IMG/VR virus record: IMGVR_UViG_3300048591_000212
DNA length: 64,000 bases
From: a virus
Lineage: Duplodnaviria > Heunggongvirae > Uroviricota > Caudoviricetes
Direction: 5' to 3' (one strand)
Below, in pieces: positions 34,541 to 52,275 of this stretch. The notes beneath the pieces were generated by a model. The model had not been told where the DNA came from and ran no database searches. It saw only the letters and a program-made list of their open reading frames with translations. The position numbers and the translations under genes are program-made. How positions within the stretch are numbered: position 1 is the first letter of the stretch; every line of letters begins with the position of its first letter.

Positions 34541-34569
34541 AGTATAGCACCTTTCTGGAGGATTGTCAA
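34541..34569 (-). promoter_or_regulatory. early promoter TTGACA-N17-TATACT inside track ORF extension, ATG at +7 (leaderless NTase mRNA)
   Basis: Minus strand: TTGACAatcctccagaaaggtgcTATACTagttatATGAGT. Confidence 0.55.
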
Positions 34570-34578
34570 GTAAAAATT

Positions 34579-34655
34579 TGGCACGGACGAGGGGATTCGA
34601 ACCCAACTACTCTTTGAGTCAAAGTCAAAGGTGCTAACCGTTACACTACGTCCGA
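34579..34655 (-). tRNA. tRNA-Gln (anticodon UUG)
   Basis: Acceptor xCGGACG/CGTCCGx, D-arm GTGT AACGGTT GCAC, anticodon stem TTTGA/TCAAA loop CUUUGAC, T-loop TTCGAAT, GCCA 3' end; T-stem only 3 bp plus mismatches. Confidence 0.65.
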
Positions 34656-34660
34656 GTAAG

Positions 34661-35089
34661 TCAGTCCCACTGTTCCCAAAAGAAGAACGAAGAATCAAAT
34701 ATTCCAAAAATCTTTCTCTTTCGAAAGGTTTGTGAATATTTTCGCTCTTTTACCGAAAACCTCAGCTTTTTGTAGTCATCAACAATATTCACATCATTGA
34801 TAGCATACCTGTCCAGAAAAGAAAACGGAACGGCCTTAATGACACGATCTATATAATTGGTGGCTTCTCTCCGAGGATTACAGTCATCTTCATAAAGTTT
34901 CGTTCCATCATAGTTACTAATAAATGGACCATTATCGAAAACTTTGGTATACAGATGAAAGTCTTCAAAGAAGACACTCACTGTATACTCTGTCACATCA
35001 AATGTCCGATATTCCCAAGGAAAAAGTTTGTCTTTAATATTCATCTTTATGACTCCATAATCCAGTAAAAAGTCCACCAAGATAAACAT
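34661..35089 (-). CDS. hypothetical protein (142 aa), tandem paralog A
   Basis: C-terminal similarity to 35034..35447 (YKKLRFSVKERKYSQTF vs LKKIKFHVTETKWTQVWF). Confidence 0.45.
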   Translation of the reverse strand: MFILVDFLLDYGVIKMNIKDKLFPWEYRTFDVTEYTVSVFFEDFHLYTKVFDNGPFISNYDGTKLYEDDCNPRREATNYIDRVIKAVPFSFLDRYAINDVNIVDDYKKLRFSVKERKYSQTFRKRKIFGIFDSSFFFWEQWD

Positions 35090-35447
35090 TTCGGAACCAC
35101 ACCTGAGTCCACTTGGTTTCGGTAACGTGAAATTTGATTTTCTTTAGGTCATCAACCAAAACTGGCTGACAGAATTTTCCATCAATATCTCGATTAAAGA
35201 GAAAATTAAAAAGAGGAATCCTCTTGGTAAATTCCATAATATACTCGGTGACCCGTAAATCGGCAGATTTGTGTAATTCAAGCCCAGAACATACATGTTC
35301 CCAGACACTATCAGAAAAAATTCTCGTCTCAACTTTTATGCCCTCGAAAGAAACATGTACAACGTATGTACACATACCAAAGGATCGAACTTCTAGCGAC
35401 TTCAGGAATTTTTTAATCTTCTTCATCATCTTCTTCATAATCCTCAA
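35034..35447 (-). CDS. hypothetical protein (137 aa), tandem paralog B
   Basis: See paralog A. Confidence 0.45.
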   Translation of the reverse strand: MRIMKKMMKKIKKFLKSLEVRSFGMCTYVVHVSFEGIKVETRIFSDSVWEHVCSGLELHKSADLRVTEYIMEFTKRIPLFNFLFNRDIDGKFCQPVLVDDLKKIKFHVTETKWTQVWFRNVYLGGLFTGLWSHKDEY

Positions 35448-35652
35448 ATGAATTCATCTCATAATCGGTCTTGATGGTCTCAAATTCATCCAGATCATCA
35501 AATTCGTCGTCGGTCATCTCGACAACCTCTAAGGTAAAGGTTTCTCCCTCTCCGCTATCCAACAGTTCATCAAGCAATACACTCAGTTCCGTCTTATTCA
35601 TTTTCAGGACATATGAACTGGTATATTGCGGCTTAACTTTCAGAAATCTCAT
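35413..35652 (-). CDS. small acidic protein (79 aa)
   Basis: ORF track; D/E-rich. Confidence 0.4.
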   Translation of the reverse strand: MRFLKVKPQYTSSYVLKMNKTELSVLLDELLDSGEGETFTLEVVEMTDDEFDDLDEFETIKTDYEMNSFEDYEEDDEED

Positions 35653-35814
35653 TCAGGCTCATTCTCCTCTTAGTACATAGGAAGGCCATAATCGAAATTA
35701 TTCTTTTCGGCCATTTCCTTAAATTTTGTTGCCAGACGAACCGCCATTTCGTTGCGGAGATCATTCGGAGCATTGGCATAGTCAATAAGCATCAGAGTGA
35801 TCATGCTCCAGAAA

Positions 35815-35960
35815 GACTACTGAAGAGTCCGGTGTTCTCGGAGCAGACGCTTTAGGACCATTTCCTTAACTTCCCGCGACGAGGTTCCGTTAAGGGCATC
35901 CAAAATGGTGGATACCGCTTCTGTCACGCGATTAGTAATTTCTTCTTGAGTTCCGTACAT
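35815..35960 (-). CDS. small protein (~48 aa) with AGGAG SD
   Basis: ATG 8 nt after AGGAGAG, downstream of a consensus promoter; below the 60-aa cutoff of the ORF track. Confidence 0.3.
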
Positions 35961-35978
35961 AATATCTCTCCTAGTTAT

Positions 35979-36007
35979 AGTATAACAGATCAGTCAAAGG
36001 ATGTCAA
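35979..36007 (-). promoter_or_regulatory. sigma70-consensus early promoter (TTGACA-N17-TATACT)
   Basis: Read on minus strand: TTGACAtcctttgactgatctgtTATACT; drives small ORF with SD. Confidence 0.5.
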
Positions 36008-36017
36008 CCTTTTCAAG

Positions 36018-36105
36018 TGGCCTCGGTGGGATTCGAACCCACACTCCCCGGAGGGAAGCGGATTTTCTTACCACTACATTTTTCAATGCCCGCCGCAAAG
36101 CGGTT
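36018..36105 (-). ncRNA. tRNA-like element C (canonical T-arm and 3' acceptor, non-canonical 5' half)
   Basis: GTGGGTTCGAATCCCAC + CGAGGCCA at 3' end; short variable-arm-like hairpin UCCC/GGGA; no 7-nt anticodon loop foldable by eye; paralogous to element at 36646..36735. Confidence 0.4.
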
Positions 36106-36131
36106 TGTGGTCTGGACTTTATCTTTGCCAT

Positions 36132-36161
36132 ATTATAAATAACTTAGGCATCCCCTGTCAA
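36132..36161 (-). promoter_or_regulatory. sigma70-consensus promoter TTGACA-N18-TATAAT upstream of tRNA-like element C
   Basis: Minus strand reads cTTGACAggggatgcctaagttatttATAAT; TSS predicted ~36125. Confidence 0.55.
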
Positions 36162-36343
36162 GTCTCTACACCTTTTAATTAGAAATTCAAAAACATCCAA
36201 TTAACTTGGCTCGGTATTGGCATCGGCTTTACCCGTTAAGCGTTCACCGAATTTAAGGGATTCTACATAAAAGATTTCTCCCTTTGCACTCAAATTAATA
36301 AGTCCGCTGCGTCTGCCAATTACGCCACAAGGCCAAAAACTTT

Positions 36344-36639
36344 TCACCAACCATAGACATCATTTCCAATAATCCTAACAAGCATCATTATTCCACAAAT
36401 CAGAAAACCAACAAAAATGATGGCCTGATGGACGAATATTCCGCCAGCCACGGAAAGCAGTAGAGCAGAAACCAAAGAAACCCGAAACAGGTTTTCGTAT
36501 TTGAAAACGAACGATAACAAAAACCAGATGAAAACTACCATTCCTGCCGTTAACCATGCACTTTCGAATAAGACCGAAACAAGTCCAACTGCTCCAGCCG
36601 AAAACAAAAATGTCATAAGAATTTGATAATATTTACGCA
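36344..36639 (-). CDS. small membrane protein (~98 aa, 3 predicted TM helices)
   Basis: Hydrophobic stretches; track start 36670 trimmed to MRKYYQIL to avoid overlap with tRNA-like element. Confidence 0.45.
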
Positions 36640-36645
36640 TAAGGG

Positions 36646-36735
36646 CCTCCGGTGGGAGTCGAACCCACAAATGACGCAGGTTTCGGAAATGAACTTTCCT
36701 ACGCCCGCCGATTTGCCAGTTTTCTACGGAGACAA
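36646..36735 (-). ncRNA. tRNA-like element A (~90 nt; possible aberrant type II tRNA)
   Basis: Acceptor GTCTCCG/CGGAGGC (one G-U) and T-arm GTGGGTTCGACTCCCAC are good; the 58-nt interior has nested hairpins (CGTAGG...CCTGCG around GGAAA-GTTCA-TTTCC) but no canonical D or anticodon arm; shares GGCGGGC box with element C. Confidence 0.4.
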
Positions 36736-36749
36736 AAATACTTAACTAG

Positions 36750-36822
36750 TAGCCCCGCAGGGATTCGAACCCCGATAAATGCGGTAGAAGCGCATTGCCT
36801 TAATCCGTTAGACGACAGGGCC
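36750..36822 (-). tRNA. tRNA-Arg (anticodon UCU)
   Basis: Acceptor GGCCCTG/CGGGGCT (two G-U), D-stem GTCT/AGGC, anticodon stem ATGCG/CGCAT loop CUUCUAC, T-arm CGGGGTTCGAATCCCTG; no encoded CCA. Confidence 0.75.
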
Positions 36823-36834
36823 AAAAGATATTTC

Positions 36835-37170
36835 TTATAATACAGACATCATTGTCAATTTCTTGATTGGCCGATAATCCTCAAAGAAGAGAGTATCATA
36901 GGGCTGAGACCACACATCATGATATCCTTTTTCGTTTTTCGAAACGCAGATAATGCGGGCATCAGCCTCAATCGGTCTGGGATATTCCTGAGATTTAGTT
37001 TTATGCGAAAAATCGAAATTGAACGGAATCTTGAGAAAAATCTCTCGTCTGCGGTCAGTACCCACAGTACCCACCTTTGCCGAGAAGAAACCGAATGGAA
37101 TGTTCTTGGCGGCTGTCAAATCGCAACCCGCACTATCACTAAAAACAGTCTCAATAATCTGTTGTTCCAT
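36835..37170 (-). CDS. hypothetical protein (111 aa), tandem paralog
   Basis: Similar to 37188..37505 (IPFGFF..VG......I..P..F......EY/EC..........K.Y..VW...YD/FL..E.YRP). Confidence 0.45.
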   Translation of the reverse strand: MEQQIIETVFSDSAGCDLTAAKNIPFGFFSAKVGTVGTDRRREIFLKIPFNFDFSHKTKSQEYPRPIEADARIICVSKNEKGYHDVWSQPYDTLFFEDYRPIKKLTMMSVL

Positions 37171-37187
37171 ATTTATTCCCCACTCTC

Positions 37188-37505
37188 CTAAAACTTAACC
37201 CGCATGTCCAATTCCATGACGGGCCGATACTCCTCAATATCGAGGAAAGTCGCATCCCATACACTAGGATAGCTCTTTTTATTTTCCGTTAAAGAGATGA
37301 TGTACGCGCCAGTACACTCTTTCGGCGTCAAGTCTCGATGGAATTTAGTTGGAGCCTTAATGAGAAGTCCTTCGTACTCCCCAATTCTTCCATAAAAAAT
37401 TCCAAACGGAATTTCCTCAGCGCAAGCCAACGATTTCGCGCTTTTCTCGTATTCAACCGTAACTTTCTGGTTCATATCATTCTCCCTCAATCCAGCATCA
37501 TACAC
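37188..37505 (-). CDS. hypothetical protein (105 aa), tandem paralog
   Basis: See previous. Confidence 0.45.
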   Translation of the reverse strand: MYDAGLRENDMNQKVTVEYEKSAKSLACAEEIPFGIFYGRIGEYEGLLIKAPTKFHRDLTPKECTGAYIISLTENKKSYPSVWDATFLDIEEYRPVMELDMRVKF

Positions 37506-37604
37506 TGATCATCGATGATCCAATAGACCATAACGAAGGTCAACCAAAGATCAAGTCCCATTTTACATAATTCCTTTCACAGTTCGAAACGTAAACGCAT
37601 CCTT

Positions 37605-37780
37605 CACTTCCCGGCGAGTGCCAACGACGCTCCCAGAGGGGGAAGCGGATGTCTTCTTCCCCCCTTCAGGACAACAGAAGACCGCCCGCTTGTGATCTTC
37701 TGTTCCATCAACTTGTTCTGTGCGATCCGATACTGAATTCGTTCGGCGGGCGTCATCTCGGTGTAGGCTTTGTTCTTCAT
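37605..37780 (-). CDS. small protein (~58 aa), predicted leaderless
   Basis: ATG 6 nt downstream of TATACT of promoter 37787..37815; below track cutoff. Confidence 0.35.
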
Positions 37781-37786
37781 ACTTAT

Positions 37787-37815
37787 AGTATACCAGTTCT
37801 GGGGTCTGTTGTCAA
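37787..37815 (-). promoter_or_regulatory. early promoter TTGACA-N17-TATACT, ATG at +7 (leaderless)
   Basis: Minus strand: TTGACAacagaccccagaactggTATACTataagtATG. Confidence 0.55.
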
Positions 37816-38070
37816 CTACTTTTTATCAAAATTCTTCAGACACAGAGTATAGGCGAACGCCTTCGCGGAGTTCAGGGGACCAATCCACTTATGTTTATCC
37901 AGATTTGCTCCCCAAGACACACCATACATGTTTGGAGTATCGTGCCCGGACATACCCAAAGAGCCATTGACGATTGTCATGTTCACTTTCTGACCATTCC
38001 AGTAAACTTCGAAGTGCCCGATCCACAGGCGCTTGGTCACAAACCGTTCATCGCTCGTGTATTTCTTCAT
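37816..38070 (-). CDS. hypothetical protein (84 aa), predicted leaderless
   Basis: ORF track; ATG 6 nt after -10 of promoter 38077..38105. Confidence 0.45.
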   Translation of the reverse strand: MKKYTSDERFVTKRLWIGHFEVYWNGQKVNMTIVNGSLGMSGHDTPNMYGVSWGANLDKHKWIGPLNSAKAFAYTLCLKNFDKK

Positions 38071-38076
38071 ACTTAT

Positions 38077-38105
38077 AGTATAGCAATCCCGAAGAGTCTT
38101 GTCAA
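38077..38105 (-). promoter_or_regulatory. early promoter TTGACA-N17-TATACT, ATG at +7 (leaderless)
   Basis: Minus strand: TTGACAagactcttcgggattgcTATACTataagtATGAAG; 20-nt block identical to 37771-37792. Confidence 0.55.
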
Positions 38106-38533
38106 GTGGTTTCTACACAAAGATCCACATGAATCAGAACACAGGAGTATGGTTCACCCGGCGCGGGCCTCTTTGCTCCTCTGCGATATCGTGAAGAAGA
38201 AGCCAGATTGTACGCATAGTAATCCGACCCCGCCCCATTCTCGGTTTTTCTCAGACCATCAAACGGCCCACCAACACAAAGAAATTTACTAACTCCAGAA
38301 ACGGTTTTCCGAGAATGAGAGTACTTCCATTCAGGGTCAGATTCATCGATACGATAAAACGTATCCCAAATGAATACGGTTTCGTCTCGAAGATCGTCTT
38401 CGTGGTCATAGGACAAGCCAAGACAGGAATCAAAAACGTATCGATGATCCTCGCCAATATCTTTCGGCTGAGTAAATCGTCTTTTCGTTATGTATGGATA
38501 TTTTGAATTATTATTCATGATTTCCTTCTTCAT
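38102..38533 (-). CDS. hypothetical protein (143 aa)
   Basis: ORF track; ATGA overlap with upstream membrane peptide gene. Confidence 0.45.
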   Translation of the reverse strand: MKKEIMNNNSKYPYITKRRFTQPKDIGEDHRYVFDSCLGLSYDHEDDLRDETVFIWDTFYRIDESDPEWKYSHSRKTVSGVSKFLCVGGPFDGLRKTENGAGSDYYAYNLASSSRYRRGAKRPAPGEPYSCVLIHVDLCVETT

Positions 38534-38709
38534 TTCTTATACCTCAACCATGCACCAAAAATAAAGATAAGCGAAAAGAGAAGACAAAGAGTCACACTTG
38601 CTCCAAATATACTTGAGATAAACATAAGAGCAGGCACAGAAAATGCCCCACCACCAATTATCATAAGAATCAAACCGAAAAATTTTCTGTCACTATTATT
38701 ATCAATCAT
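38530..38709 (-). CDS. small hydrophobic membrane peptide (~59 aa)
   Basis: MIDNNSDRKFFGLILMIIGGGAFSVPALMFISSIFGASVTLCLLFSLIFIFGAWLRYKK; not in track (<60 aa). Confidence 0.35.
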   Translation of the reverse strand: MIDNNSDRKFFGLILMIIGGGAFSVPALMFISSIFGASVTLCLLFSLIFIFGAWLRYKK

Positions 38710-38720
38710 ATCGAGAACTC

Positions 38721-39182
38721 CTATTCATAACAACCCTTACAGCCGTCATAGTCATCTTCTTCCGGCTCGTCATCATAACAGCCGCGACAGGTATCCCAGA
38801 CATCCTCGTCTTCCGATTCCGGTTCGGAGATTGGTTCAGGAGGATTATCCACATCAACAATCTCAAAGTGGTGGGTTAGATTTTTCGTCATTCCCGGCAT
38901 CATGAAGACCCAGAATAACTGTCTATCAGTTGATTCAAAATCCGAACAAGTAATGGCGGATTTCAAAAATGGATCAACAATCGCTTCCGGCGTCTCTCCC
39001 AATAGAACTCTTCGAACTACGGAAAAGGAAGAATCAGTAAACGCAACTCTGTCCCCGGCACACAATACCTGATCCGAAGTCACCAAAATTCCCGGCACAT
39101 GAAAGGCGTCCCGCTTTCCGCCATTTTCCATAATCGTCTTTTTGTCTGCCCAACTGGATTCACCAATATTAACTTTCATCAT
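38721..39182 (-). CDS. hypothetical protein (153 aa) with acidic Cys-containing C-terminus
   Basis: ORF track. Confidence 0.45.
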   Translation of the reverse strand: MMKVNIGESSWADKKTIMENGGKRDAFHVPGILVTSDQVLCAGDRVAFTDSSFSVVRRVLLGETPEAIVDPFLKSAITCSDFESTDRQLFWVFMMPGMTKNLTHHFEIVDVDNPPEPISEPESEDEDVWDTCRGCYDDEPEEDDYDGCKGCYE

Positions 39183-39363
39183 TATCTCCTCTATAGACTT
39201 TCAATACTATACCTGACGTGGGAATTACATACTTGGCGGATAATTCTCGAATATAGCCTTCAGAAACTTTTCGCCCATCGGCCCTTTTATGGACGTTCCG
39301 AATACATTGCTCTGGATCGTTTTCGAAAAAGAACCAAATTGGATTAATGTTTTCTTTTTTCAT
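39169..39363 (-). CDS. hypothetical protein (~64 aa; start trimmed to MKKENIN)
   Basis: Track N-terminus overlaps tRNA gene. Confidence 0.35.
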   Translation of the reverse strand: MKKENINPIWFFFENDPEQCIRNVHKRADGRKVSEGYIRELSAKYVIPTSGIVLKVYRGDNDES

Positions 39364-39394
39364 CCTCTTATCTGGAGGCACTGCCGAGGCATAA

Positions 39395-39484
39395 TGGTCC
39401 TGCGGTGCGGAATCGAACCGCATCCTGGGTCTTATCTGGACTAAGGGCTTATAAGGCCCCCTGCTCTCCATGAGCTACCGCAGG
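39395..39484 (-). tRNA. tRNA with anticodon UAU (Ile-like) and ~21-nt extra arm (90 nt incl. CCA)
   Basis: Acceptor CCTGCGG/CCGCAGG, anticodon stem GGGGC/GCCCU loop CUUAUAA, T-arm TGCGGTTCGATTCCGCA, ACCA end; long variable region is unusual for an Ile tRNA. Confidence 0.6.
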
Positions 39485-39647
39485 CAATCTTTTATATATT
39501 CTTCAGTGATCTGAGAAAGGGAGCAGACTTATTTATTCCCACCCGAAGAAGAGATTATGAAACTTGAACGGCGAATAAAGGAGGCAATTCAGCAAATTGT
39601 TCAAGAAAATCAAAACCTCTTCTTCAGGAATTTCCGCCCTCTTGATA

Positions 39648-39878
39648 TTAGTCAGCAACCCAGATAGCAGACATTCGCCCATTCCCCAGAACCGACTTTT
39701 CGGCATCATTCCAACCGCGCCTCCATGCGTTAAACGCATCCTTATCAACAAACAGCAGGGTGCCATCAACAGAATAAGGATTGTCAACATCGGGGTCATG
39801 TCCGAGAGTGTGAGCCTTCCGCCCAAGCAGGTATGCAACCCGCATATCGTATTTATGTGCGTTGTCGTTTTTCATCAT
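39648..39878 (-). CDS. hypothetical protein (76 aa)
   Basis: ORF track; downstream of promoter 39907..39935 with ~25-nt leader. Confidence 0.4.
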   Translation of the reverse strand: MMKNDNAHKYDMRVAYLLGRKAHTLGHDPDVDNPYSVDGTLLFVDKDAFNAWRRGWNDAEKSVLGNGRMSAIWVAD

Positions 39879-39906
39879 CGTCTCAGTCCCTTTCTTCTAC
39901 TCTTTC

Positions 39907-39935
39907 AGTATAGCAGTTCCGCTAACGCTTGTCAA
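39907..39935 (-). promoter_or_regulatory. early promoter TTGACA-N17-TATACT
   Basis: Minus strand: TTGACAagcgttagcggaactgcTATACT. Confidence 0.5.
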
Positions 39936-39938
39936 GAC

Positions 39939-40184
39939 TTACCAAGAAGAATTCCACGAATCCAGAACAAAATTGTTGCTGTCAACAGTCCACTCAAAGG
40001 TGGCATGAGCATCAGGGTCGATCTTTCCTGCATCATTCATCGCATCAAGCCAAGACTTCACTTCATCAATCACGGCACCAATGAGCAGGTTGGACACATT
40101 CTTATGAGTGTAAGACAGATGGTTGATCCGGTTTCCTTCGGAGTCGGATACTACCACAATCAGATTGGCAGTTTTCGTTTCCAT
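39939..40184 (-). CDS. hypothetical protein (82 aa from METKTANL), predicted leaderless
   Basis: Track ORF 39939..40232 trimmed; ATG 6 nt after -10 of promoter 40191..40219. Confidence 0.45.
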   Translation of the reverse strand: METKTANLIVVVSDSEGNRINHLSYTHKNVSNLLIGAVIDEVKSWLDAMNDAGKIDPDAHATFEWTVDSNNFVLDSWNSSW

Positions 40185-40190
40185 GATTAT

Positions 40191-40219
40191 AGTATAGCAG
40201 GACCAAACCCACTTGTCAA
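40191..40219 (-). promoter_or_regulatory. early promoter TTGACA-N17-TATACT, ATG at +7 (leaderless)
   Basis: Minus strand: TTGACAagtgggtttggtcctgcTATACTataatcATGGAA. Confidence 0.55.
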
Positions 40220-40548
40220 GTGATAGGACCAAGATATTTCAGACCGAAGGCCGAAGACCGCTTCACATGGGTCCAGCGCCCCGACACGACACCATGAAAA
40301 AGCGTGGTGGTTTGAATCATCTCAAGAAGCTCGGTCGGAAACATTTCAAACGGAACTCCGGTGGAGGACCGGAGCACGAAAAGTTTTCCACAACGCCCCT
40401 CCAGCTTCATCGTTTCCTCAAATACACGAGGCTCAGAATGTTCCCACAAATCGGGATAGCCGATGGAGTCCCACACGTCATAGTGGGTTCGCGGAACATA
40501 GCCGTCGGACTTTCTGTATGGAACAGTAAATTTTGGTTTCTTTGGCAT
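40216..40548 (-). CDS. hypothetical protein (~110 aa; ATG start after GAGGA)
   Basis: Track ORF 40216..40563 begins at TTG; GAGGA SD precedes the second ATG. Confidence 0.45.
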   Translation of the reverse strand: MPKKPKFTVPYRKSDGYVPRTHYDVWDSIGYPDLWEHSEPRVFEETMKLEGRCGKLFVLRSSTGVPFEMFPTELLEMIQTTTLFHGVVSGRWTHVKRSSAFGLKYLGPIT

Positions 40549-40737
40549 AATCATTATCCTCAATTAAAAATCCGATCCACCAAGCCTATCCTCCAGACGA
40601 GAGATTCGACGTTCCAGTTCCTCCCGCCTTCGCCTCTCTTTCAGAAGCAACTCAACGACCATTTCAAATCGCTCATCGACACTCAAGGCTCCACCTTCGT
40701 CATTGATTTCCATTTGGAACTTCCTTTCATAAAACGC

Positions 40738-40827
40738 AGCGGGGGGCGAAGGAATCGAACCCTACTGGCTCGTCACCAGTCCCCGGATTTCAAGTCCGGT
40801 TGCCGACCATTCAGCGGCACCCCCCAA
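40738..40827 (-). tRNA. tRNA-Ser (anticodon UGA), type II
   Basis: G-rich acceptor GGGGGGU/GCCCCCC, D-stem GCCG/CGGC, anticodon stem CCGGA/UCCGG loop CUUGAAA, long variable arm ACUGG-UGACGAG-CCAGU, T-loop TTCGATT; 5' end coincides with predicted TSS of promoter 40835..40863. Confidence 0.7.
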
Positions 40828-40834
40828 CATCTAC

Positions 40835-40863
40835 AGTATAGCACACGATCTTTGTGCCGTCAA
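40835..40863 (-). promoter_or_regulatory. early promoter TTGACG-N17-TATACT directly upstream of tRNA-Ser
   Basis: Minus strand: TTGACGgcacaaagatcgtgtgcTATACTgtagatGTTGGGGGG. Confidence 0.5.
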
Positions 40864-41141
40864 CTATCGAGATCAGCTTTCTTCAGAAGACTCGCGAGTT
40901 TCGCATAATCTTTCGGTTGCAGAATAAACGATTCAAAGTCTCCGTACTTTGACTTGTAACCAAAAATATATTTGATTCCGGCAACCAATCTTCGAAAGAA
41001 ACTTCGATACTGACACAGATAAATCGAAAAATAAAAATCCGACAGACCGTTTTCTGGATCAGTATAGACGGTTACCTTAAGTGTATGCTCGTCCGAGGAG
41101 CAGACACACTCAAAAAACTCCATATCTCGTTCTGTTGTCAT
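40860..41141 (-). CDS. hypothetical protein (93 aa)
   Basis: ORF track. Confidence 0.4.
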   Translation of the reverse strand: MTTERDMEFFECVCSSDEHTLKVTVYTDPENGLSDFYFSIYLCQYRSFFRRLVAGIKYIFGYKSKYGDFESFILQPKDYAKLASLLKKADLDS

Positions 41142-41941
41142 AGAATCTCCGAATAGTATTGTTTCAGCTTCGAATGACCACTATGAGAATGAACAATATC
41201 AGAATAATCATGAATAGTAAAAATTCCCGCATCAACAATCTGCTTGGACGGCTGATGACCCAAGGCGGCGGATGACCAATGTTCTTTAGGAAATAGCCGG
41301 AAGAAATACTTCAAAACCGGATCATTTTTAGAGAACACCACATGAATATCTTCTTTGAAATAATCCTTAATGAATCCGGCTGACACATCAGAGATCGTTT
41401 TCTCATAAAAAGAATTGGTAATTGCTGGTGCCGCAAACACCACTTTACCGACAAATTCGGCTACTTCTCTTCGAATAAAATGTTCGATTACTTCACATCC
41501 CAGAGAATGCCCCTGAATGATAATATTTTCTTCTAGGTATCCAATATTCTTTAGTGCCTGAACTGCCCGCATCAGCCACTTAGCCGCTTCCTGAGTTCTC
41601 TTCTTTGCGAAGTAGAAACCGAGAGTTCTGGACCAAGAGGAAGGCCAGAAGAAATTCAACACGTCCACTTTCTCATAACGAGAGTGATTATCAATGTTCT
41701 CGGCCATTCTATCATAAACAGTCACAATCTTATCATAGACGCCGCGATATCCATGAACCAGAATGATGACCTTTCTATTTTTGTCCGCCAAGAATGAACT
41801 TGAACTGCCTACCATATAATTACCAATACCAACAATTCTTTTTTCGAGATAATTCTTTCCATACTCAAACTTAACGAATTCCGTATCGGAACGTCCATTC
41901 TTTCTGCAATTAAACTCGTAGATATGATTAATTCTCGTCAT
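41138..41941 (-). CDS. alpha/beta-hydrolase (lipase or esterase-like, GHSLG nucleophile elbow)
   Basis: VIILVHGYRG ... IIQGHSLGCEV pattern. Confidence 0.6.
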   Translation of the reverse strand: MTRINHIYEFNCRKNGRSDTEFVKFEYGKNYLEKRIVGIGNYMVGSSSSFLADKNRKVIILVHGYRGVYDKIVTVYDRMAENIDNHSRYEKVDVLNFFWPSSWSRTLGFYFAKKRTQEAAKWLMRAVQALKNIGYLEENIIIQGHSLGCEVIEHFIRREVAEFVGKVVFAAPAITNSFYEKTISDVSAGFIKDYFKEDIHVVFSKNDPVLKYFFRLFPKEHWSSAALGHQPSKQIVDAGIFTIHDYSDIVHSHSGHSKLKQYYSEIL

Positions 41942-43039: not shown

Positions 43040-43044
43040 ACAAT

Positions 43045-43689: not shown

Positions 43690-43692
43690 ACA

Positions 43693-43896
43693 TTATTTCC
43701 TTTCCATAACCAATTCTATCGGCTTTCCATCTTCATTACTAGTTGGCACAAAAATGTTTCCGCATTCATCAGTCAGATACTTCGTTCCGTTTCGATCCAT
43801 CTTCTCCTCGGCGGCGACAATTCTCCACCGTCCAGAAAGAGTAGTGGACAACTCAATCTTCCTTTTCATCATAGCACATCTCCAGATGTTTGTCAA
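43693..43896 (-). CDS. hypothetical protein (67 aa)
   Basis: ORF track; TTGACA-N17-TATGAT promoter at ~43868..43896 overlaps its 5' end. Confidence 0.35.
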   Translation of the reverse strand: MTNIWRCAMMKRKIELSTTLSGRWRIVAAEEKMDRNGTKYLTDECGNIFVPTSNEDGKPIELVMERK

Positions 43897-44916: not shown

Positions 44917-44917
44917 T

Positions 44918-47900
44918 TTAACGATTCTCCAGATTCTCTTTGATTTGATCAAAAGTAATATAGTTTGTCTCAGAACCAATAAGCTCATCAAAAACTAGAT
45001 CATAAGCACAGTTTTCCAACTCAGAAACAGTAGCATTCTGCTTCACAAAAAGTTCACCATTTTCGTTCCGATATACTGCCGGAATTCCTCGAATCGACTT
45101 TTTGGAATTTTTCTTATCATCAGTAATCGGATCTTTGAAGATTGGCTGAATGGTGTCACCGTTCACTTCGATTGCGGTCGCCTTCATTGCGAAACCAAAG
45201 GTGTCCCGCGTCACATATTCATAAGTAAAGGAACCAATTCCGAAGACCATATTATAGGGACTCAACTTCAATTCATTTACCATTCGATCCAGAATGGCAT
45301 CCGCCCGCTCATAAGTGATGGCATCACCATAAATGACTCCAGCATTATTGATCATCGGAAGCCCGCCATCGACGCCCGGAGTAGTACCAAGAGCCTCAGC
45401 CAGAAGCCGAAGAACTCCCTTACGTTCATTCTCATTGGATGAATTCGGATCACCACAGACAATATTAACTGGATCGCCAGAATTACCAGAAACAACAACA
45501 CAGCCGTTTCGTCTGACCACGATCATGCCAGTATTAACCTGAACGCAATACACCTTTCCGGTATACGAAACAGCGGCTTTCTTAATACTTTGCCCACCAG
45601 AAGTAGACGTTTTGTTTATGTGAATCGTGTATACCTTAGAGAAGTAGGATTTTCTCGTATCGTCATATTCAGAAGAACACGTCCTATAGCCAGCCAAGGT
45701 AGCCAATAATTGAACGGCCTCGGCATTAATCTTAACGGTTGTATCGTATTTTATTCTATTTTCGCTCCTGATACAACTATCCCAATTGGACAATTCATCA
45801 ATAAATTCTTTGGCCCAGACGCCTGAAATGTCATTCAGCATATCAAAAACCCAAGCAAAAGTTTTTTGTGCATCATTTGGAAGAGTAACATAGAATTGGG
45901 TGTTTCTTGGACGAGCGGGTTCAACAGTTTCCTTATACTCGAAACCAGATTCAATCAATAATTTTCTCATGCGATCCACTTTTCGCTGTTTAGTGAAATT
46001 AAATCTCACCTTATTTTTCGGACCAGTCGTGTTGAACGAACCATCCGCCTGAAAAGCAATCAACAATCTTTCTTCCGAAGTAAGAGATTTCGGCTTGCCA
46101 ACCAAAACGCCAGAATGGATCATATCCTTCTCATAGAAGTATTTTATATTTTCTGCCTCTTTTACTTCTACTCCTCCGCGCCCATTTGTTCTGACCATAC
46201 GATGATTTGAAGTAACCAACAAATCGACGTGACTGTCGTTTCTGAAATGAATCATATCTTGTTCGGATTCCAGCTCCGATTCATAATAACGGATAGGCTT
46301 GGTGAAATTGATGGTCCCGTCTTGGTTATACTCTGCTACCAGATCCTCTTCATTTAAGTCCTTAAATAAAACAAAACCGCGATTAGTAAGGATTTCTGTT
46401 TTGTCATCATAACAATCCGGCCTGATCACGATCTTACCATTTCGATTCAAAATTGAATCCTTCAGTCGTGGAATATAATTTGTCAAAACTTTCCACAAAT
46501 CAAACGAATCAGAAACAATTGACACGATGCCTTCGGGGTAAACCTTATTGATCAGTCGGTCAAACATCTCAAATTCATCAACTTCTCCATTCGGAAGATA
46601 CTTGGCAGAACTTGTCATCACGCTATGTTCCGTGTTTCCTGAAATAGCAATGATGCCATTTCTCCGAACAACAATCATCTTCGAAGGAACAGAAACACAA
46701 TATACATAATCGTCATAATCAAACACTTCATTTATTATTCCATGACAGGTAACAACACTTTTATTCAAAGTAATTGTGATGCGGTGCATTGGATTTCTTT
46801 TATAATCTTCCCTCTTGTCAATGTACATGCTGACCTTAGTTTTACAATTACATAAAGTAGCCAAGCATTCAACAACTTCAACATTTAGTTGATTTGTTGA
46901 GGAGTAGATAATATGATTTTTTCTTCTGCTGCCGTCCCAATATTGCAACTCTTCAATAAAAGCTCGGCACCAAGATGACGACACTTCAACGATGTTAACC
47001 CAAGAGAAATCCTTCAGCAATTTTTCGGGTAAATTGATCCAAAAAGAATAATAACCATCTTTATATTTTGTCCAAGTGAAAACACAATCATCAATTTCCG
47101 ATAAAATCGACAACAATCTTTTGAACTTTCTTTCTTTCTTGAAAGAAAAACGAATCGGAAATTTTCCGCTCCTCTCCCCGGTATAATCTTCCGCATGTGA
47201 AGGATATGACCCATCTGCTTGAAAAGCAATCTTCAGCTTCTCCAATGGAGATAATGTTTCTTTCCCACCAATTTTATTTCCAGAAACAACAACTTTATTT
47301 TTTGTGTTATACACAGATTGAGAAGATGCTTCTTTCAGTTCAATTTTCCGGTCTTTATTTAAGAACACCAACTTATGATTTGGAGTAACACAAATATCTA
47401 TATAACGATGACCCTCTTTATAAAACCGATACATTTTTCCTTTATATCGATCCTTATAATATTTCGTCGGAGAAACAAACTCTATATTACCATCGATAGT
47501 ATATTGTGCAACCAGATCAGTTTCCAGTAAATCATCAAATTTCTTAAATCCTGAATTTGTCAACAATTCCGTTTCTTTATCAAAGCAAGCCGGAACCGAC
47601 CCACCACAAGAATATTCCGCACCATAGTATTCAACGGCACCCAAAATCGCCGGAATGGTGTCGGTTCCATTAAAAGAAAGAAGATGACCCATTCCAGACA
47701 TTACGGCATCTTCCAGACCCGACATGCCACGATACGAAAAATCATGTCCCTGCCATTTCGTGAAAGTTAGATCCTTTTCGCCAGAGAGAATCGCCCACTT
47801 CTCAAACAGTCTCTTGTACCGATCTGCGATGGTGGCAGAAGTCATTCCCTTCCAGAGCATATTAGAAATCATCGTTTCCAGATAGTTTGGAAGCCAGAAA

Positions 47901-48301
47901 GCCCACGGCTCAGTGTTATGAATCACAATCGACGGAATTCCGAGAGGTACCAGAGTACCTTCTGGAAGAGAATAAATCCGAATTGGCAATGCGCCATGAT
48001 GCCACAACTGTTCAATATGATCCGTCTTCGGATTAGCCACACCCAGAGTCGCGGAGATGATCTCACGATACTGCCGAAGAATATTTCTCAAGTCTTCAGT
48101 GAAAAATAATTCATCGAACATTTCCTCAATTCGACGAAGCACACACTGAACCCCAAAATGGACAATCTTATTCACGCCATCAATTCGGCTGGAACGGGGC
48201 GTCCAATTCGAGAAAACCGTGGTTACGTTTTCTGGATACTGCTGGACGTGTCCGACCTTATAAAAGTCGATCATGAAAATAGGATTAATTTCTTTCATCA
48301 T
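44918..48301 (-). CDS. nicotinamide phosphoribosyltransferase-like (NAMPT/NadV or Namat) precursor interrupted by two inteins; extein 498 aa
   Basis: N-terminal signature IDFYKVGHVQQYP (NAPRTase family); 1127 aa vs ~490 expected; two insertions beginning with Cys after ...GGSVPA and ...KIVIRPD and ending ...VVRRNG(I/C)xxxSGN followed by Thr or Ser. Confidence 0.8.
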   Translation of the reverse strand: MMKEINPIFMIDFYKVGHVQQYPENVTTVFSNWTPRSSRIDGVNKIVHFGVQCVLRRIEEMFDELFFTEDLRNILRQYREIISATLGVANPKTDHIEQLWHHGALPIRIYSLPEGTLVPLGIPSIVIHNTEPWAFWLPNYLETMISNMLWKGMTSATIADRYKRLFEKWAILSGEKDLTFTKWQGHDFSYRGMSGLEDAVMSGMGHLLSFNGTDTIPAILGAVEYYGAEYSCGGSVPACFDKETELLTNSGFKKFDDLLETDLVAQYTIDGNIEFVSPTKYYKDRYKGKMYRFYKEGHRYIDICVTPNHKLVFLNKDRKIELKEASSQSVYNTKNKVVVSGNKIGGKETLSPLEKLKIAFQADGSYPSHAEDYTGERSGKFPIRFSFKKERKFKRLLSILSEIDDCVFTWTKYKDGYYSFWINLPEKLLKDFSWVNIVEVSSSWCRAFIEELQYWDGSRRKNHIIYSSTNQLNVEVVECLATLCNCKTKVSMYIDKREDYKRNPMHRITITLNKSVVTCHGIINEVFDYDDYVYCVSVPSKMIVVRRNGIIAISGNTEHSVMTSSAKYLPNGEVDEFEMFDRLINKVYPEGIVSIVSDSFDLWKVLTNYIPRLKDSILNRNGKIVIRPDCYDDKTEILTNRGFVLFKDLNEEDLVAEYNQDGTINFTKPIRYYESELESEQDMIHFRNDSHVDLLVTSNHRMVRTNGRGGVEVKEAENIKYFYEKDMIHSGVLVGKPKSLTSEERLLIAFQADGSFNTTGPKNKVRFNFTKQRKVDRMRKLLIESGFEYKETVEPARPRNTQFYVTLPNDAQKTFAWVFDMLNDISGVWAKEFIDELSNWDSCIRSENRIKYDTTVKINAEAVQLLATLAGYRTCSSEYDDTRKSYFSKVYTIHINKTSTSGGQSIKKAAVSYTGKVYCVQVNTGMIVVRRNGCVVVSGNSGDPVNIVCGDPNSSNENERKGVLRLLAEALGTTPGVDGGLPMINNAGVIYGDAITYERADAILDRMVNELKLSPYNMVFGIGSFTYEYVTRDTFGFAMKATAIEVNGDTIQPIFKDPITDDKKNSKKSIRGIPAVYRNENGELFVKQNATVSELENCAYDLVFDELIGSETNYITFDQIKENLENR
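45482..46414 (-). mobile_element. intein 2 (311 aa) with LAGLIDADG-type homing endonuclease domain, paralogous to intein 1
   Basis: Starts CYDDKTEILTNRG, contains LLIAFQADGSF, ends MIVVRRNGCVVVSGN | S. Confidence 0.7.
46634..47587 (-). mobile_element. intein 1 (318 aa) with LAGLIDADG-type homing endonuclease domain
   Basis: Starts CFDKETELLTNSG (Hint block A), contains LKIAFQADGSY (LAGLIDADG-like), ends MIVVRRNGIIAISGN | T. Confidence 0.7.
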
Positions 48302-49234: not shown

Positions 49235-49386
49235 ATCATACCGAACATGACAGTTTCATCTCCACTAAAGAGATCTTTACGACCATCAAATGAATTGGAA
49301 TACTCCTCAATCAACTTGTTGAGGGCAGCAATCTCTTCATCAATCCACTCAATCTTCTTCTGATACGGATTACTCTTCATTACCAA
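49159..49386 (-). CDS. hypothetical protein (75 aa)
   Basis: ORF track. Confidence 0.4.
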   Translation of the reverse strand: MVMKSNPYQKKIEWIDEEIAALNKLIEEYSNSFDGRKDLFSGDETVMFGMICTTDAKIQELTKMKQYLQDVGELF

Positions 49387-49712
49387 TTCCTAAAGTCCTT
49401 TCTGGAATAAACCACGCTCAAATCCTCGCTCTTCGGTGTACGACCAACATGGTAGCCATCACACCATCGGCACTTGTACGGAACATAAGAACCACGAGGC
49501 CGAATCACTTCTTGACGATAGGCTCCGATAGTAGCCAAAGCCTTCGTCGGGTACTTATGCTTTTTCGAACAAGAATAGTAGGCATCAAAGACACCATCCT
49601 TCTGTAGTCGGTCAAATAGATCGAGAGCGTCCCGGTCAGAGAGACAATCGATATGAATACCTAGAACAGAGAGATGACGCTTGGCCCGCTGTCCAGCAGT
49701 TTCTTTCTCCAT
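49380..49712 (-). CDS. hypothetical Cys/His-containing protein (110 aa), predicted leaderless
   Basis: ORF track; ATG 6 nt after -10 (TACCAT) of promoter with perfect TTGACA. Confidence 0.45.
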   Translation of the reverse strand: MEKETAGQRAKRHLSVLGIHIDCLSDRDALDLFDRLQKDGVFDAYYSCSKKHKYPTKALATIGAYRQEVIRPRGSYVPYKCRWCDGYHVGRTPKSEDLSVVYSRKDFRNW

Positions 49713-49719
49713 ACTTCTA

Positions 49720-49748
49720 TGGTATCAGATTCATGAGTGAATGTCAAG
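49720..49748 (-). promoter_or_regulatory. early promoter TTGACA-N17-TACCAT, ATG at +7
   Basis: Minus strand: TTGACAttcactcatgaatctgaTACCATagaagtATGGAG. Confidence 0.45.
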
Positions 49749-50085: not shown

Positions 50086-50161
50086 TAGTCCGCCTCGGAC
50101 TCGAACCGAGAATGCCTCCTGAATGTAAATCAGGCGCTCTAACCAATTGAGCTAACGGACT
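50086..50161 (-). tRNA. tRNA-Val (anticodon UAC)
   Basis: Acceptor AGTCCGT/GCGGACT, D-arm GCTC AATTGGTTA GAGC, anticodon stem CCTGA/TCAGG loop UUUACAU, T-arm CTCGGTTCGAGTCCGAG; TATAAT -10 4-5 nt upstream of 5' end. Confidence 0.75.
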
Positions 50162-50166
50162 ATAAA

Positions 50167-50599: not shown

Positions 50600-50608
50600 T
50601 TATTTCTC

Positions 50609-51064
50609 CTATGCTAGCGGAAAAGACTTCAACCAAGCAATAAATTCGAGAATACACATCGCATCATGAGTACCACGCTTAGACACTCGCATAATTTTCA
50701 TAGCCTTCTCTTCATCATAGAGCCAATTGGGAAGAATGATACCAACTGCCGTCAATGCCCCATTCAGGGATTGCTCGTCCTCATAAAAAGATGCCATTGG
50801 AATACATGACTCAGAAAAACGAAAACACTTCGACAGATATCCATTGCTAAAAAATTCAGTGATATGATCACGAATCCCCTTCAGGCTGGCACAGTTGCCT
50901 CCATTCAGGACTATAATGGTCTTATGATCAGCGGCCCACTCAGTAAACACGGTAACATCAATTTCGTTTCGTTCTTGAAACGCCATCTCAGAAACAACAT
51001 GAGCGGTCTGAATTCCGCGCTGAATGTCCGACAGGTACATATTCGTAAAGCTATACAATCTCAT
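50609..51064 (-). CDS. hypothetical protein (151 aa)
   Basis: ORF track; weak resemblance to small hydrolase folds, not assignable. Confidence 0.45.
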   Translation of the reverse strand: MRLYSFTNMYLSDIQRGIQTAHVVSEMAFQERNEIDVTVFTEWAADHKTIIVLNGGNCASLKGIRDHITEFFSNGYLSKCFRFSESCIPMASFYEDEQSLNGALTAVGIILPNWLYDEEKAMKIMRVSKRGTHDAMCILEFIAWLKSFPLA

Positions 51065-51073
51065 TATTTGCCT

Positions 51074-51331
51074 CTATTCTTCCCACAATTCATATTCACG
51101 CAAGTCACTCTCAAAAACCCACACCACAGGAAATATCGAAACGTCCTTGCCGCCAGAATACAACTCAACGAGCCACGTCATCTTGTTTTCTTCGTGTGGA
51201 CCATAATATGACCGGGGGCCGAGACCCACAACTTCACCAACTTCACCATTCAGCGGACCAGCAGCAACCCCCTCAATAATCACTCGATCACCGTACTTGA
51301 ATTTCAATTTCATAAATTCCTCCCTCACCAT
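51074..51331 (-). CDS. hypothetical protein (85 aa)
   Basis: ORF track. Confidence 0.4.
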   Translation of the reverse strand: MVREEFMKLKFKYGDRVIIEGVAAGPLNGEVGEVVGLGPRSYYGPHEENKMTWLVELYSGGKDVSIFPVVWVFESDLREYELWEE

Positions 51332-51341
51332 TATTTAGATG

Positions 51342-51418
51342 TGGAGTCCCCTGTAGGAGTCGAACCTACTAAGAGCGACTTTGCAGGTCGCCGCCTCCAC
51401 CACTTCGGCATAGAGGAC
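51342..51418 (-). tRNA. tRNA-Cys (anticodon GCA)
   Basis: Acceptor GTCCTCT/AGGGGAC, anticodon stem GCGAC/GTCGC loop CUGCAAA, T-arm GTAGGTTCGACTCCTAC, discriminator U + CCA; 3-bp D-stem. Confidence 0.75.
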
Positions 51419-51427
51419 AATTAAAAA

Positions 51428-51985
51428 CTAAACAGCAGCCATAGTCTTACTGTTCATTCTCGACCAAAAAACCTTTCCGAAAACTGGACCGCCGTCAACA
51501 ATTCCTTTCGGAATATTCGCGAGATATTTACCGTACCTCACTCCATAGTGAGTGTCTTCCTTGCCGGGGGCGGGTGACAGAAAAGGAACATACTTTTTCA
51601 TTCCATCGGACCAACGAACAAACTTTTTGGCAAAGGCAATCGCATAAGATGCCAAACACTGCTCCATTTTCTCCTGACAGCGATCATTCCAGACCAGAGC
51701 ATTATCCATCGCCCACTCCCAAGCAAAGATTTCCCGATCCTGTTTGCTGGTGTTTTCGGTATCCATAATATGACCGATCTCATGAAGGGCCACCACATAG
51801 GAGATAACCGAAGAAATCTTTCCGACCTGAATCTTTCTCGTCCTCATCCATGCCCGACCCCTACCCGAAACACCGGACTCGAAGATTTCAATGTCATGTT
51901 CCTTACATAGTTCAAGAATGTGCCAGCGCATAAAACTCTTGGAAACTTCAGTTGTCTTCGTCTTCGTCTTCGTCTTCGTCATCAT
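51428..51985 (-). CDS. HExxH metallopeptidase-like protein (185 aa) with N-terminal (TK)n repeat
   Basis: VALHEIGHIMD zinc-binding motif; N-terminal MMTKTKTKTKTT encoded by (cgtctt)n microsatellite. Confidence 0.5.
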   Translation of the reverse strand: MMTKTKTKTKTTEVSKSFMRWHILELCKEHDIEIFESGVSGRGRAWMRTRKIQVGKISSVISYVVALHEIGHIMDTENTSKQDREIFAWEWAMDNALVWNDRCQEKMEQCLASYAIAFAKKFVRWSDGMKKYVPFLSPAPGKEDTHYGVRYGKYLANIPKGIVDGGPVFGKVFWSRMNSKTMAAV

Positions 51986-51994
51986 TACTCTTTC

Positions 51995-52023
51995 AGTATA
52001 ACAGGTAGAGAGGAGCTTGTCAA
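51995..52023 (-). promoter_or_regulatory. early promoter TTGACA-N17-TATACT, ATG ~9 nt downstream
   Basis: Minus strand: TTGACAagctcctctctacctgtTATACTgaaagagtaATGATG. Confidence 0.5.
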
Positions 52024-52042
52024 GAGTCTCCCAAAAAATTTC

Positions 52043-52240
52043 TTAGAAGGTTGCCCGCATCACATCAACAGCAGCCAGAGTCAAAGTCGGATGATTCCGC
52101 CCAACACATTCCTCTTTATACCAAGCAGAGTAGGTCTTGGTGTCCTTGTTATAGATGACATATCCTTGAGCAATCGAACGATACAGAACGCCGAACACGA
52201 TAGTATCTTCCGTTTCGTACACAACAACATTCTTCGTCAT
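52043..52240 (-). CDS. hypothetical protein (65 aa), predicted leaderless
   Basis: ORF track; ATG 6 nt after -10. Confidence 0.45.
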   Translation of the reverse strand: MTKNVVVYETEDTIVFGVLYRSIAQGYVIYNKDTKTYSAWYKEECVGRNHPTLTLAAVDVMRATF

Positions 52241-52246
52241 GTCTAC

Positions 52247-52275
52247 ATGATAGCAGACGAGGAAGAACTTGTCAA
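52247..52275 (-). promoter_or_regulatory. early promoter TTGACA-N17-TATCAT, ATG at +7
   Basis: Minus strand: TTGACAagttcttcctcgtctgcTATCATgtagacATGACG. Confidence 0.5.

Follow-up and report, generated by a model that had tools for sequence, protein, structure and literature searches.

The DNA considered here belongs to a tailed virus of the class Caudoviricetes (IMG/VR record IMGVR_UViG_3300048591_000212) and was analysed as a stretch of 64,000 nucleotides, referred to as the window, whose numbering is used throughout and whose G+C content is about 40%. Between 34.5 and 52.3 kb its minus strand carries a family of promoter sequences, several of which are followed at one fixed distance by an ATG with no Shine-Dalgarno (SD) sequence in front of it, an arrangement that points to genes expressed from leaderless mRNAs.

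Genomic setting and promoter family

The phage encodes T4-type baseplate and replication core genes, which place it among the T4-superfamily myoviruses. Specifically, positions 1–23 kb of the minus strand contain a gp6-like wedge protein gene (phrog_219, E = 7e-157) together with gp5-like hub and lysozyme, gp27-like and gp48-like baseplate genes. The best tblastn identities, in the range of 34–41%, are with Pelagibacter phage HTVC008M, cyanomyoviruses, Caulobacter phage Cr30 and Methylophilales phages, and the core genes show the same 34–41% identity to Kyanoviridae. Moreover, megablast found no near-identical relative in INPHARED and the gp6 homologs in IMG/VR are at most 41% identical. The window is therefore derived from a deep-branching member of the T4 superfamily. 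Its RlaP-type nucleotidyltransferase (Table 1), used as a query against IMG/VR and JGI metagenomes, retrieved only matches of 23–32% identity, none of them with such promoters. Proteins identical to those of the window are encoded on a JGI contig of 181,309 bp, and a JGI contig of 21.6 kb (L295) is 99.93% identical to positions 32554–48070.

The promoters lie within a minus-strand block, from 28 to 56 kb, which is occupied by dozens of small orphan open reading frames (ORFs) and eight tRNAs, in addition to a tRNA-Leu(UAA) gene interrupted by a group I intron and a nicotinamide phosphoribosyltransferase (NAMPT) gene containing an intein. A block of this kind is typical of the early, hyperplastic region of T4-type phages, and its promoter type and gene content suggest that it would be expressed early. 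The T4 late-promoter motif TATAAATA is not enriched, as four copies were found and 2.85 were expected.

The exact motif TTGACA-N16-18-TATACT occurs seven times, against an expectation from shuffled sequences of 0.02, and all seven copies are on the minus strand with a spacer of 17 nt (34541, 35979, 37787, 38077, 39907, 40191 and 51995). When one or two deviations are allowed, four more sites appear, at 40863 (TTGACG), 52275 (TATCAT), 49747 (TACCAT) and 43896 (TATGAT), bringing the family to 11 minus-strand promoters of the form TTGACA-N17-TAnnnT. The -35 hexamer is TTGACA in ten members and TTGACG in one, the -10 hexamer is TATACT in eight, the remaining three having one variant each, and the spacer is invariably 17 nt. 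In addition, all 11 members have TG at -15/-14, that is, an extended -10 element, which the initial annotation of the window had overlooked; the family consensus is TTGACA-N14-TGn-TAnnnT. In a consensus scan, every site matching at least 10 of 12 positions with TG before the -10 element (11 sites) is on the minus, coding strand, while weak promoter-like sites show no excess (48 versus 41 expected). The initial annotation had listed at least ten minus-strand copies of cTTGACAag-N17-TATACT. The ten sites do exist, three of them being inexact (40835 with TTGACG, 52247 with TATCAT and 49719 with TACCAT), and the eleventh (43896–43868, TATGAT) was missing from its list.

The -35 hexamer, the spacer with the -10 hexamer and the TG all agree with what defines an extended -10 promoter for the primary sigma factor (sigma70/sigmaA), and we infer that the family is read by the host primary-sigma RNA polymerase. 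Their activity is predicted, with support from a phylogenetic footprint: relatives of the phage retain both hexamers while the spacer varies freely.

Two look-alikes were discarded. The site at 36132..36161 (-), which had been counted as a further copy with TATAAT, has an 18-nt spacer, lacks the TG and falls within the catalytic core of the group I intron that interrupts tRNA-Leu(UAA), its TTGACA being part of the conserved intron core sequence AGACUUGACAGGGGA. The other, at 29804–29775, lies in the middle of a gene with a complete cREC_REC domain. The tRNA-Leu(UAA) itself (36015–36345, minus strand) has a long variable arm and carries the intron in its anticodon loop (RF00028, 53 bits, 36093–36309); ARAGORN makes no call of this tRNA. 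Unannotated parts of two huge phages from metagenomes, LR756501 and LR756503 (735 kb), match 91% of the length of this segment at 69% identity, and Agrobacterium phage Atu_ph07 shows a partial match. Outside the early block, a perfect consensus promoter, TTGACA-N17-TGcTATAAT, is found at 62117–62145 (-), directed antisense into the 3′ end of uvsW and with no ORF after it; it could be a source of antisense RNA.

Start codons behind the promoters and their conservation

At six of the 11 promoters (ATGs at 34534, 37780, 38070, 40184, 49712 and 52240) exactly 6 nt separate the -10 hexamer from an ATG, a geometry designated N6-ATG in the following. Given an ATG frequency of 0.026 on the minus strand, the binomial probability of six in 11 at one offset is 1.4e-7, or about 1e-6 when eight offsets are allowed for. 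In all six junctions a pyrimidine occupies -1 and an A occupies +1. The other five promoters comprise one with an ATG at 9 nt (51985), one leading into tRNA-Ser, two with ordinary leaders and an ambiguous one (43896). All of these ATG positions, including the 9-nt case, are as first reported.

The absence of an SD at the six ATGs, also noted at the outset, is borne out as well. The preceding 20 nt are promoter sequence, so that there is neither an SD nor room for one, and the anti-SD duplex energies are weak in five of the six cases, from 0.7 to -3.6 kcal/mol. For 34534 the value is -6.2 kcal/mol, with the pairing located in the promoter spacer, upstream of the predicted transcription start. 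By comparison, clearly SD-led neighbour genes reach -9 to -11 kcal/mol, and neighbours with AGGAG or GGAGG leaders confirm that SD-led genes coexist in this region. The start codon is ATG at all six junctions and at the 9-nt case, in keeping with the AUG expected of leaderless mRNAs. The intergenic space at the leaderless-type junctions amounts to just 35–38 nt, all of it promoter. Specifically, in four of the six the TGA stop of the upstream gene is the TGA of TTGACA, in one a TAG abuts the -35 element and in one a tRNA ends 10 nt upstream.

Table 1. Promoters of the family, the genes behind them and the replication gene uvsW, in window coordinates.
Feature	Coordinates	Strand	Remarks
Promoter TTGACA-N17-(TGc)TATCAT	52247..52275	-	TGA stop of upstream gene (52274–52272) inside -35
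65-aa ORF, leaderless candidate	52043..52240	-	ATG 6 nt past -10; C at -1, A at +1
Promoter TTGACA-N17-(TGt)TATACT	51995..52023	-	
185-aa metalloprotease-like ORF, near-leaderless candidate	51428..51985	-	ATG 9 nt past -10; no SD
Promoter TTGACA-N17-(TGa)TACCAT	49719..49747	-	Upstream TGA stop inside -35; TATAAT or TACAAT in relatives
110-aa ORF, strongest leaderless candidate	49380..49712	-	ATG 6 nt past -10; sole in-frame start in first 40 codons
Promoter-like TTGACA-N17-(TGc)TATGAT	43868..43896	-	Overlaps SD-led ATG at 43872; ambiguous role
Promoter TTGACG-N17-(TGc)TATACT	40835..40863	-	5′ end of tRNA-Ser(UGA) (40825) 9 nt past -10
tRNA-Ser(UGA)	40739..40825	-	Predicted precursor leader of about 3 nt from the promoter above
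Promoter TTGACA-N17-(TGc)TATACT	40191..40219	-	Upstream TGA stop (40218–40216) inside -35
81-aa ORF, leaderless candidate	39939..40184	-	ATG 6 nt past -10; JGI gene call agrees on ATG
Promoter TTGACA-N17-(TGc)TATACT	39907..39935	-	Ordinary 28-nt purine-rich leader, ATG at 39878 (76-aa ORF)
Promoter TTGACA-N17-(TGc)TATACT	38077..38105	-	Upstream TGA inside -35; kept in L296, spacer diverged
84-aa ORF, leaderless candidate	37816..38070	-	ATG 6 nt past -10; homolog of 74% identity shares junction
Promoter TTGACA-N17-(TGg)TATACT	37787..37815	-	Upstream TAG stop abuts -35
58-aa ORF, leaderless candidate	37604..37780	-	ATG 6 nt past -10
Promoter TTGACA-N17-(TGt)TATACT	35979..36007	-	18-nt leader with AGGAG, ATG at 35960 (47-aa ORF); SD-led comparison case
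Promoter TTGACA-N17-(TGc)TATACT	34541..34569	-	10 nt downstream of tRNA-Gln (34579–34655)
252-aa RlaP-type nucleotidyltransferase, leaderless candidate	33776..34534	-	ATG 6 nt past -10; Pfam match from residue 8
UvsW	60592..62073	+	

The six ATGs open ORFs of 58, 65, 81, 84, 110 and 252 codons. Reading frames of at least 58 codons follow only 24% of random minus-strand ATGs, and six out of six gives p = 2e-4. In-frame stops are located 15–75 nt upstream; in four cases the ATG is the first start codon after the stop, while each of the remaining two has a TTG as its sole upstream alternative. The N-terminal extensions that would result from these TTGs had been judged artefactual, rightly so: the codon at 34606 falls inside tRNA-Gln, the one at 40232 shares sequence with the end of the preceding ORF, and both are without an SD. 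Within the six ORFs no SD was found at any alternative in-frame start, upstream or downstream (GTG and ATG included), and behind the ATG at 49712 there is no further in-frame ATG, GTG or TTG in the first 40 codons. Frame 0 receives a positive score for all seven candidates, that is, the six and 51985, from a codon-usage model whose training set was the long structural genes, and the score is positive even within the first 12 codons in seven of seven; over its full length the 58-aa ORF has an ambiguous frame score. In the 252-aa protein the Pfam RlaP nucleotidyltransferase domain aligns from residue 8.

Independent gene calls (JGI, ENA and Logan, on the 99.9% identical L295 and on relatives) agree with these ATGs at five of the six junctions, the five that they cover; none is available for 52240. 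Those on L295 start at 40184, 38070, 37780 and 34534, in relatives the 49712 family is called at 110 aa, and the ORF at 51985 is independently called at 185 aa. The ORF lengths, the frame test, the co-linearity of the homologs described below, the independent calls and the N-terminal coverage of the Pfam domain together indicate, on the evidence of sequence, that the six ATGs are genuine gene starts.

Conservation was examined at two of the six junctions, those of the 110-aa gene (49712) and of the 84-aa gene (38070). The 110-aa protein has three homologs of 92, 81 and 75% identity, each 110 aa long and co-linear from residue 1. When their contigs (L125–L129) are aligned with the window, five elements prove invariant, namely TTGACA, the extended -10 TGA, TA..AT of the -10 itself, A.AAGT and ATG, while the 14 spacer positions have essentially nothing in common among the four lineages. 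Within the -10 element variation is confined to the tolerant middle positions (TACCAT, TATAAT, TACAAT), and past the ATG the differences fall on the third positions of codons 2, 4, 5 and 7, where they are synonymous. The 84-aa gene has one homolog, 74% identical, on contig L296, with the junction TTGACA-N17-TGcTATACT-ataagt-ATG and a diverged spacer. In other words, at both junctions the two hexamers, the TG, the 17-nt spacing and the N6-ATG are all retained in relatives whose proteins are 74–92% identical, a footprint that would be expected from selection on polymerase contacts and on a coding sequence starting at the ATG. For the 81-aa gene no homologs were found beyond this phage. A further N6-ATG promoter is present on contig L126 (141–403, plus strand), in front of a 75-aa ORF with CxxC zinc-finger repeats (176–403) which the source gene caller left uncalled; the TGA stop of this ORF is the TGa of the extended -10 of the next promoter.

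The units also appear to come and go as a whole. Contig L296 lacks the module formed by promoter and 58-aa ORF (37815–37604), and since the two are missing jointly they behave as a cassette indel; in addition, relatives differ in the order of the genes surrounding the 110-aa gene. These features would also fit the view that the repeats are mainly recombination cassettes, as promoter-early stem-loop (PeSL) cassettes of RB49/phi1 and of other T4-type pairs are documented to mediate module shuffling (PMC2839356, PMC4122927), or that they are read by a phage-modified polymerase whose altered start selection would leave a short leader. However, the stem-loop component is missing, fixed hexamers next to diverging spacers are the mark of selection acting on the contacts with polymerase, as opposed to tracts of homology, and no phage factor is needed for a motif that corresponds to the canonical primary-sigma consensus plus an extended -10. 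Moreover, a role in recombination is compatible with promoter function. As a substitute for leaderless expression, this view is very improbable.

Proposed leaderless initiation and its alternatives

Primary-sigma polymerases initiate preferentially at the seventh base after the -10 element, favouring a purine preceded by a pyrimidine. Following this rule, transcription from an N6-ATG promoter with a pyrimidine at -1 is expected to start on the A of each ATG. The interpretation that we favour, to which we assign a probability of roughly 0.7, is that the six junctions are compact promoter-plus-ORF cassettes whose messages would be leaderless. Specifically, the host primary-sigma polymerase would read all 11 extended -10 promoters and, at six of them, begin on the A of the ATG, producing an mRNA devoid of 5′ untranslated region (UTR). 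The ribosome, as a 70S particle with fMet-tRNA, would then bind the 5′-terminal AUG directly and with no SD pairing, as on the lambda cI message from PRM. The seventh gene, at 51985, would have a 5′ UTR of 1–3 nt, and tRNA-Ser would be transcribed almost from its mature 5′ end. Each unit would be self-contained and gained or lost as a whole. This leaderless reading is supported in that it came through every computational test on the sequences that could have overturned it.

Several observations weigh against it, nonetheless. Low structure at the 5′ end is expected to favour leaderless translation, and the minimum free energy of the first 36 nt averages -4.5 kcal/mol for the six messages versus -4.1 kcal/mol for 740 random ATG sites (n = 6), so that the six do not differ from random sites in this respect. 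Terminator-like sites are about as frequent as expected (17 versus 15.3) and none is found at the cassettes; consequently, the six ORFs are also carried on messages reading through from promoters further upstream, on which another mode of initiation would be needed or the ORF would be silent. Conservation could be checked at only two of the six junctions. Finally, the identical promoter-ATAAGT-ATG sequence in unrelated phage and bacterial contigs often precedes a stop within 2–25 codons, a GGAGG or a tRNA-like sequence, and an ATG at +1 can be a by-product of the preferred start-site context. An ATG at +1 is thus by itself no proof of a start codon, and the case is carried by the ORF and conservation evidence.

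The read-through transcripts lead to a different account, in which the promoters are real and translation of the ORFs takes place mainly on longer messages, internally and independently of an SD, for example through S1-dependent loading onto A-rich stretches or through 70S ribosomes that scan past the upstream stop, the coincidence of +1 and ATG being a consequence of genome compaction. The lack of terminator-like sites above chance between genes would be in line with it, and so would the upstream stop codons, only 35–38 nt away in five of the six cases, and the first codons, rich in purine and A. However, compaction does not fix an offset of 6 with a pyrimidine at -1, an offset which is the same in six of six and conserved in relatives. 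Moreover, gene 34534 follows a tRNA, so that coupling is impossible there, and, as is established for translational coupling, 35 nt without an SD is poor for re-initiation. We consider this account unlikely.

A further possibility is that the ATG at +1 belongs to a conserved module of promoter and initial transcribed sequence and is not the start codon, with translation beginning further downstream or with some of the small ORFs not being genes. Indeed, the exact 38-nt architecture TTGACA-N14-TGn-TAYMMT-AKAAGT-ATG occurs in 85 IMG/VR and 63 bacterial stretches, more than half of which continue with an early stop, an SD or a tRNA-like sequence; in addition, the promoters at 38105 and 37815 share 14 identical nt past the -10 (ataagtATGAAGAA), and the frame score of the 58-aa ORF is ambiguous overall. 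Such a module does not account for six long ORFs in a coding-like frame behind six of six ATGs, for the lack of an SD at downstream starts and of any alternative start behind 49712, for homologs whose co-linearity extends to residue 1 and whose synonymous differences begin at codon 2, or for the RlaP domain, which needs the N-terminus. It is accordingly held to be highly improbable, and leaderless expression of the six genes remains the preferred reading.

The arrangement is not confined to this phage. IMG/VR contigs were retrieved with TATACT-N6-ATG and the seeding matches excluded; as every contig had been chosen for one site of this type, the resulting rate is no population estimate. Among 110 distinct non-seed consensus promoters of these contigs the distance to ATG peaks at offset 6, with 21 sites, 14 of them opening ORFs of at least 50 codons, against 1–8 sites at each other offset. 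On three unrelated uncultivated phage contigs (55% and 36% G+C), where the ORFs are of roughly 40–115 codons, the N6-ATG is found at five of 11 consensus extended -10 promoters with ORFs of at least 50 codons (L013, IMGVR_UViG_3300023174_000064), at three of four, again with ORFs of at least 50 codons (L045), and at three of three with ORFs of 42–64 codons (L076). The leaderless cassette design therefore seems to recur in other phage lineages, as far as sequence can tell, and the data suggest that it is commoner than the literature indicates. In 1.07 Mb of T4-like loci, a weak background because these were chosen by gp6 homology and are mostly late regions, seven comparable promoters were found and none has an N6-ATG; likewise, 50 kb of HTVC008M contain no comparable promoter with an N6-ATG.

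As for the bacterial matches to the 38-nt architecture (L307–L369), about 36 of the 63 come from metagenome-assembled genomes (MAGs) of Candidatus Saccharibacteria/Patescibacteria, with several matches per MAG, and about 22 from Clostridia/Oscillospiraceae; some 24 of the 63 open ORFs of at least 84 aa. Many of the Saccharibacteria matches have the promoter-to-tRNA arrangement found at tRNA-Ser(UGA) of the window, in their case with a 2-nt leader (L308, L329, L331). These matches are possibly a clue to the host, or a sign of leaderless genes in bacteria of the Candidate Phyla Radiation (CPR). Among non-seed promoters the leaderless type accounts for two of 11 in Patescibacteria loci and none of 13 in Clostridia, counts which are too thin, so that a Patescibacteria host is a lead and not a result. 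No paper linking leaderless mRNAs with Patescibacteria was found, and a literature search for the host by sample accessions found nothing. A broader proposal would make leaderless initiation a deliberate immediate-early class, in this lineage and in many uncultivated phages, by which takeover proteins would be made through SD-independent 70S initiation from the first transcripts, possibly with a tie to a CPR host or with protection from SD-targeted shut-off. We regard this extension as quite unlikely. If true, it could connect the phage to a host group where that mode of initiation is common, for example a CPR bacterium, and the messages could escape a shut-off directed at SD-led translation.

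If transcript mapping confirms the favoured reading, leaderless mRNAs would be the product of roughly half the early promoters in a T4-type phage, and this would add a translation-level layer of early gene control in a group usually described only by promoters and SD-led messages. In practical terms, SD-dependent gene callers can extend or miss leaderless genes, as exemplified by the two artefactual extensions in the window and by the uncalled zinc-finger ORF of L126, and a rule consisting of a consensus -10, 6 nt and an ATG would improve the annotation of phage orphan genes.

Other features of the region were recorded alongside. An RNA-repair-like gene set accompanies the tRNA cluster, with a cyclic-phosphate-processing receiver domain protein (cREC_REC, 29605–29979, minus strand), the RlaP-type nucleotidyltransferase and a Metallophos_2 phosphoesterase (L295, 14754–15179); it may serve to counter host anticodon nucleases. 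The NAMPT gene (44918–48301, minus strand) encodes 1127 aa with NAMPT_N and NAPRTase domains and is interrupted by an intein with a LAGLIDADG domain; on L295 it is called as two pieces (327+ and 798 aa). At 39395–39484 (-) ARAGORN calls a 90-nt tRNA-Ile(UAU) that is below the Rfam gathering score, and at 36650–36745 (-), directly upstream of the ORF starting at 36640, there is a tRNA-like 3′ end (T-arm GGTTCGACTCC) where no tRNA is called. Both could be unusual or interrupted tRNAs.

Comparison with known systems

T4-type phages are known to place large families of sigma70-type early promoters before early genes, novel ORFs and tRNAs (PMC1524935), and the early promoters of T4, RB69, RB49, 44RR and Aeh1 (PMC1524935, PMC2988021) are likewise large families served by the host sigma factor and located 5′ of early genes. 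Their consensus has a -35 element GTTTAC with an A-rich UP-like tract, and leaderless starts are not described in these two studies. The present family, in contrast, has TTGACA at -35, an invariant TG at -15/-14 and no A-tract, because the sequence upstream of its promoters is coding. The literature searches turned up no account of early genes with leaderless messages in T4-like phages or cyanophages, and a differential RNA sequencing study of phiKZ found no leaderless early genes.

The closest structural parallel within the T4 group is represented by the PeSLs, in which a stem-loop terminator is present and the 3′ end is formed by an SD and a start codon (PMC2839356). As in those cassettes, strong sigma70-like early promoters are repeated directly before orphan ORFs in a hyperplastic region, and the modules differ between close relatives. 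Unlike PeSLs, the cassettes described here have no excess of stem-loops or terminators, a 5-bp stem being possible in only two of the 11 spacers, and six of them have no SD; an SD with a start codon at the 3′ end of the cassette is not the rule, as leaders are present only at 36007 and 39935.

Leaderless genes are well known in Actinobacteria, including mycobacteria, and in their phages (PMC4633059, PMC3160421). There, too, a -10 element (TAnnnT) located 6–7 nt before an ATG marks a site of both transcription and translation start, and SD-led genes coexist. In Actinobacteria, however, this is a genome-wide trait of a host with high G+C content, and the promoters usually have no strong -35 element, whereas the phage described here has 40% G+C, full-consensus promoters and an otherwise strong use of SD sequences.

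The nearest mechanistic precedent is phage lambda. In the lambda record the ATG of cI follows the -10 element TAGATT and 6 nt (taacgt), with a T at -1, an A at +1 and no SD, a geometry identical to that of the six junctions. The cI mRNA from PRM is the textbook leaderless message, for which the start on the A and 70S-type initiation are established, and 434 cI and P2 gene V are also expressed from leaderless mRNAs. PRM, however, is a weak, activator-dependent promoter of lysogeny with a poor -35 element (TAGATA), and it serves a single gene, whereas here six or seven genes of a lytic early region lie behind near-consensus extended -10 promoters. The sequence evidence thus gives good support to a known mechanism, put to repeated use across several genes in a way not previously described in T4-like phages.

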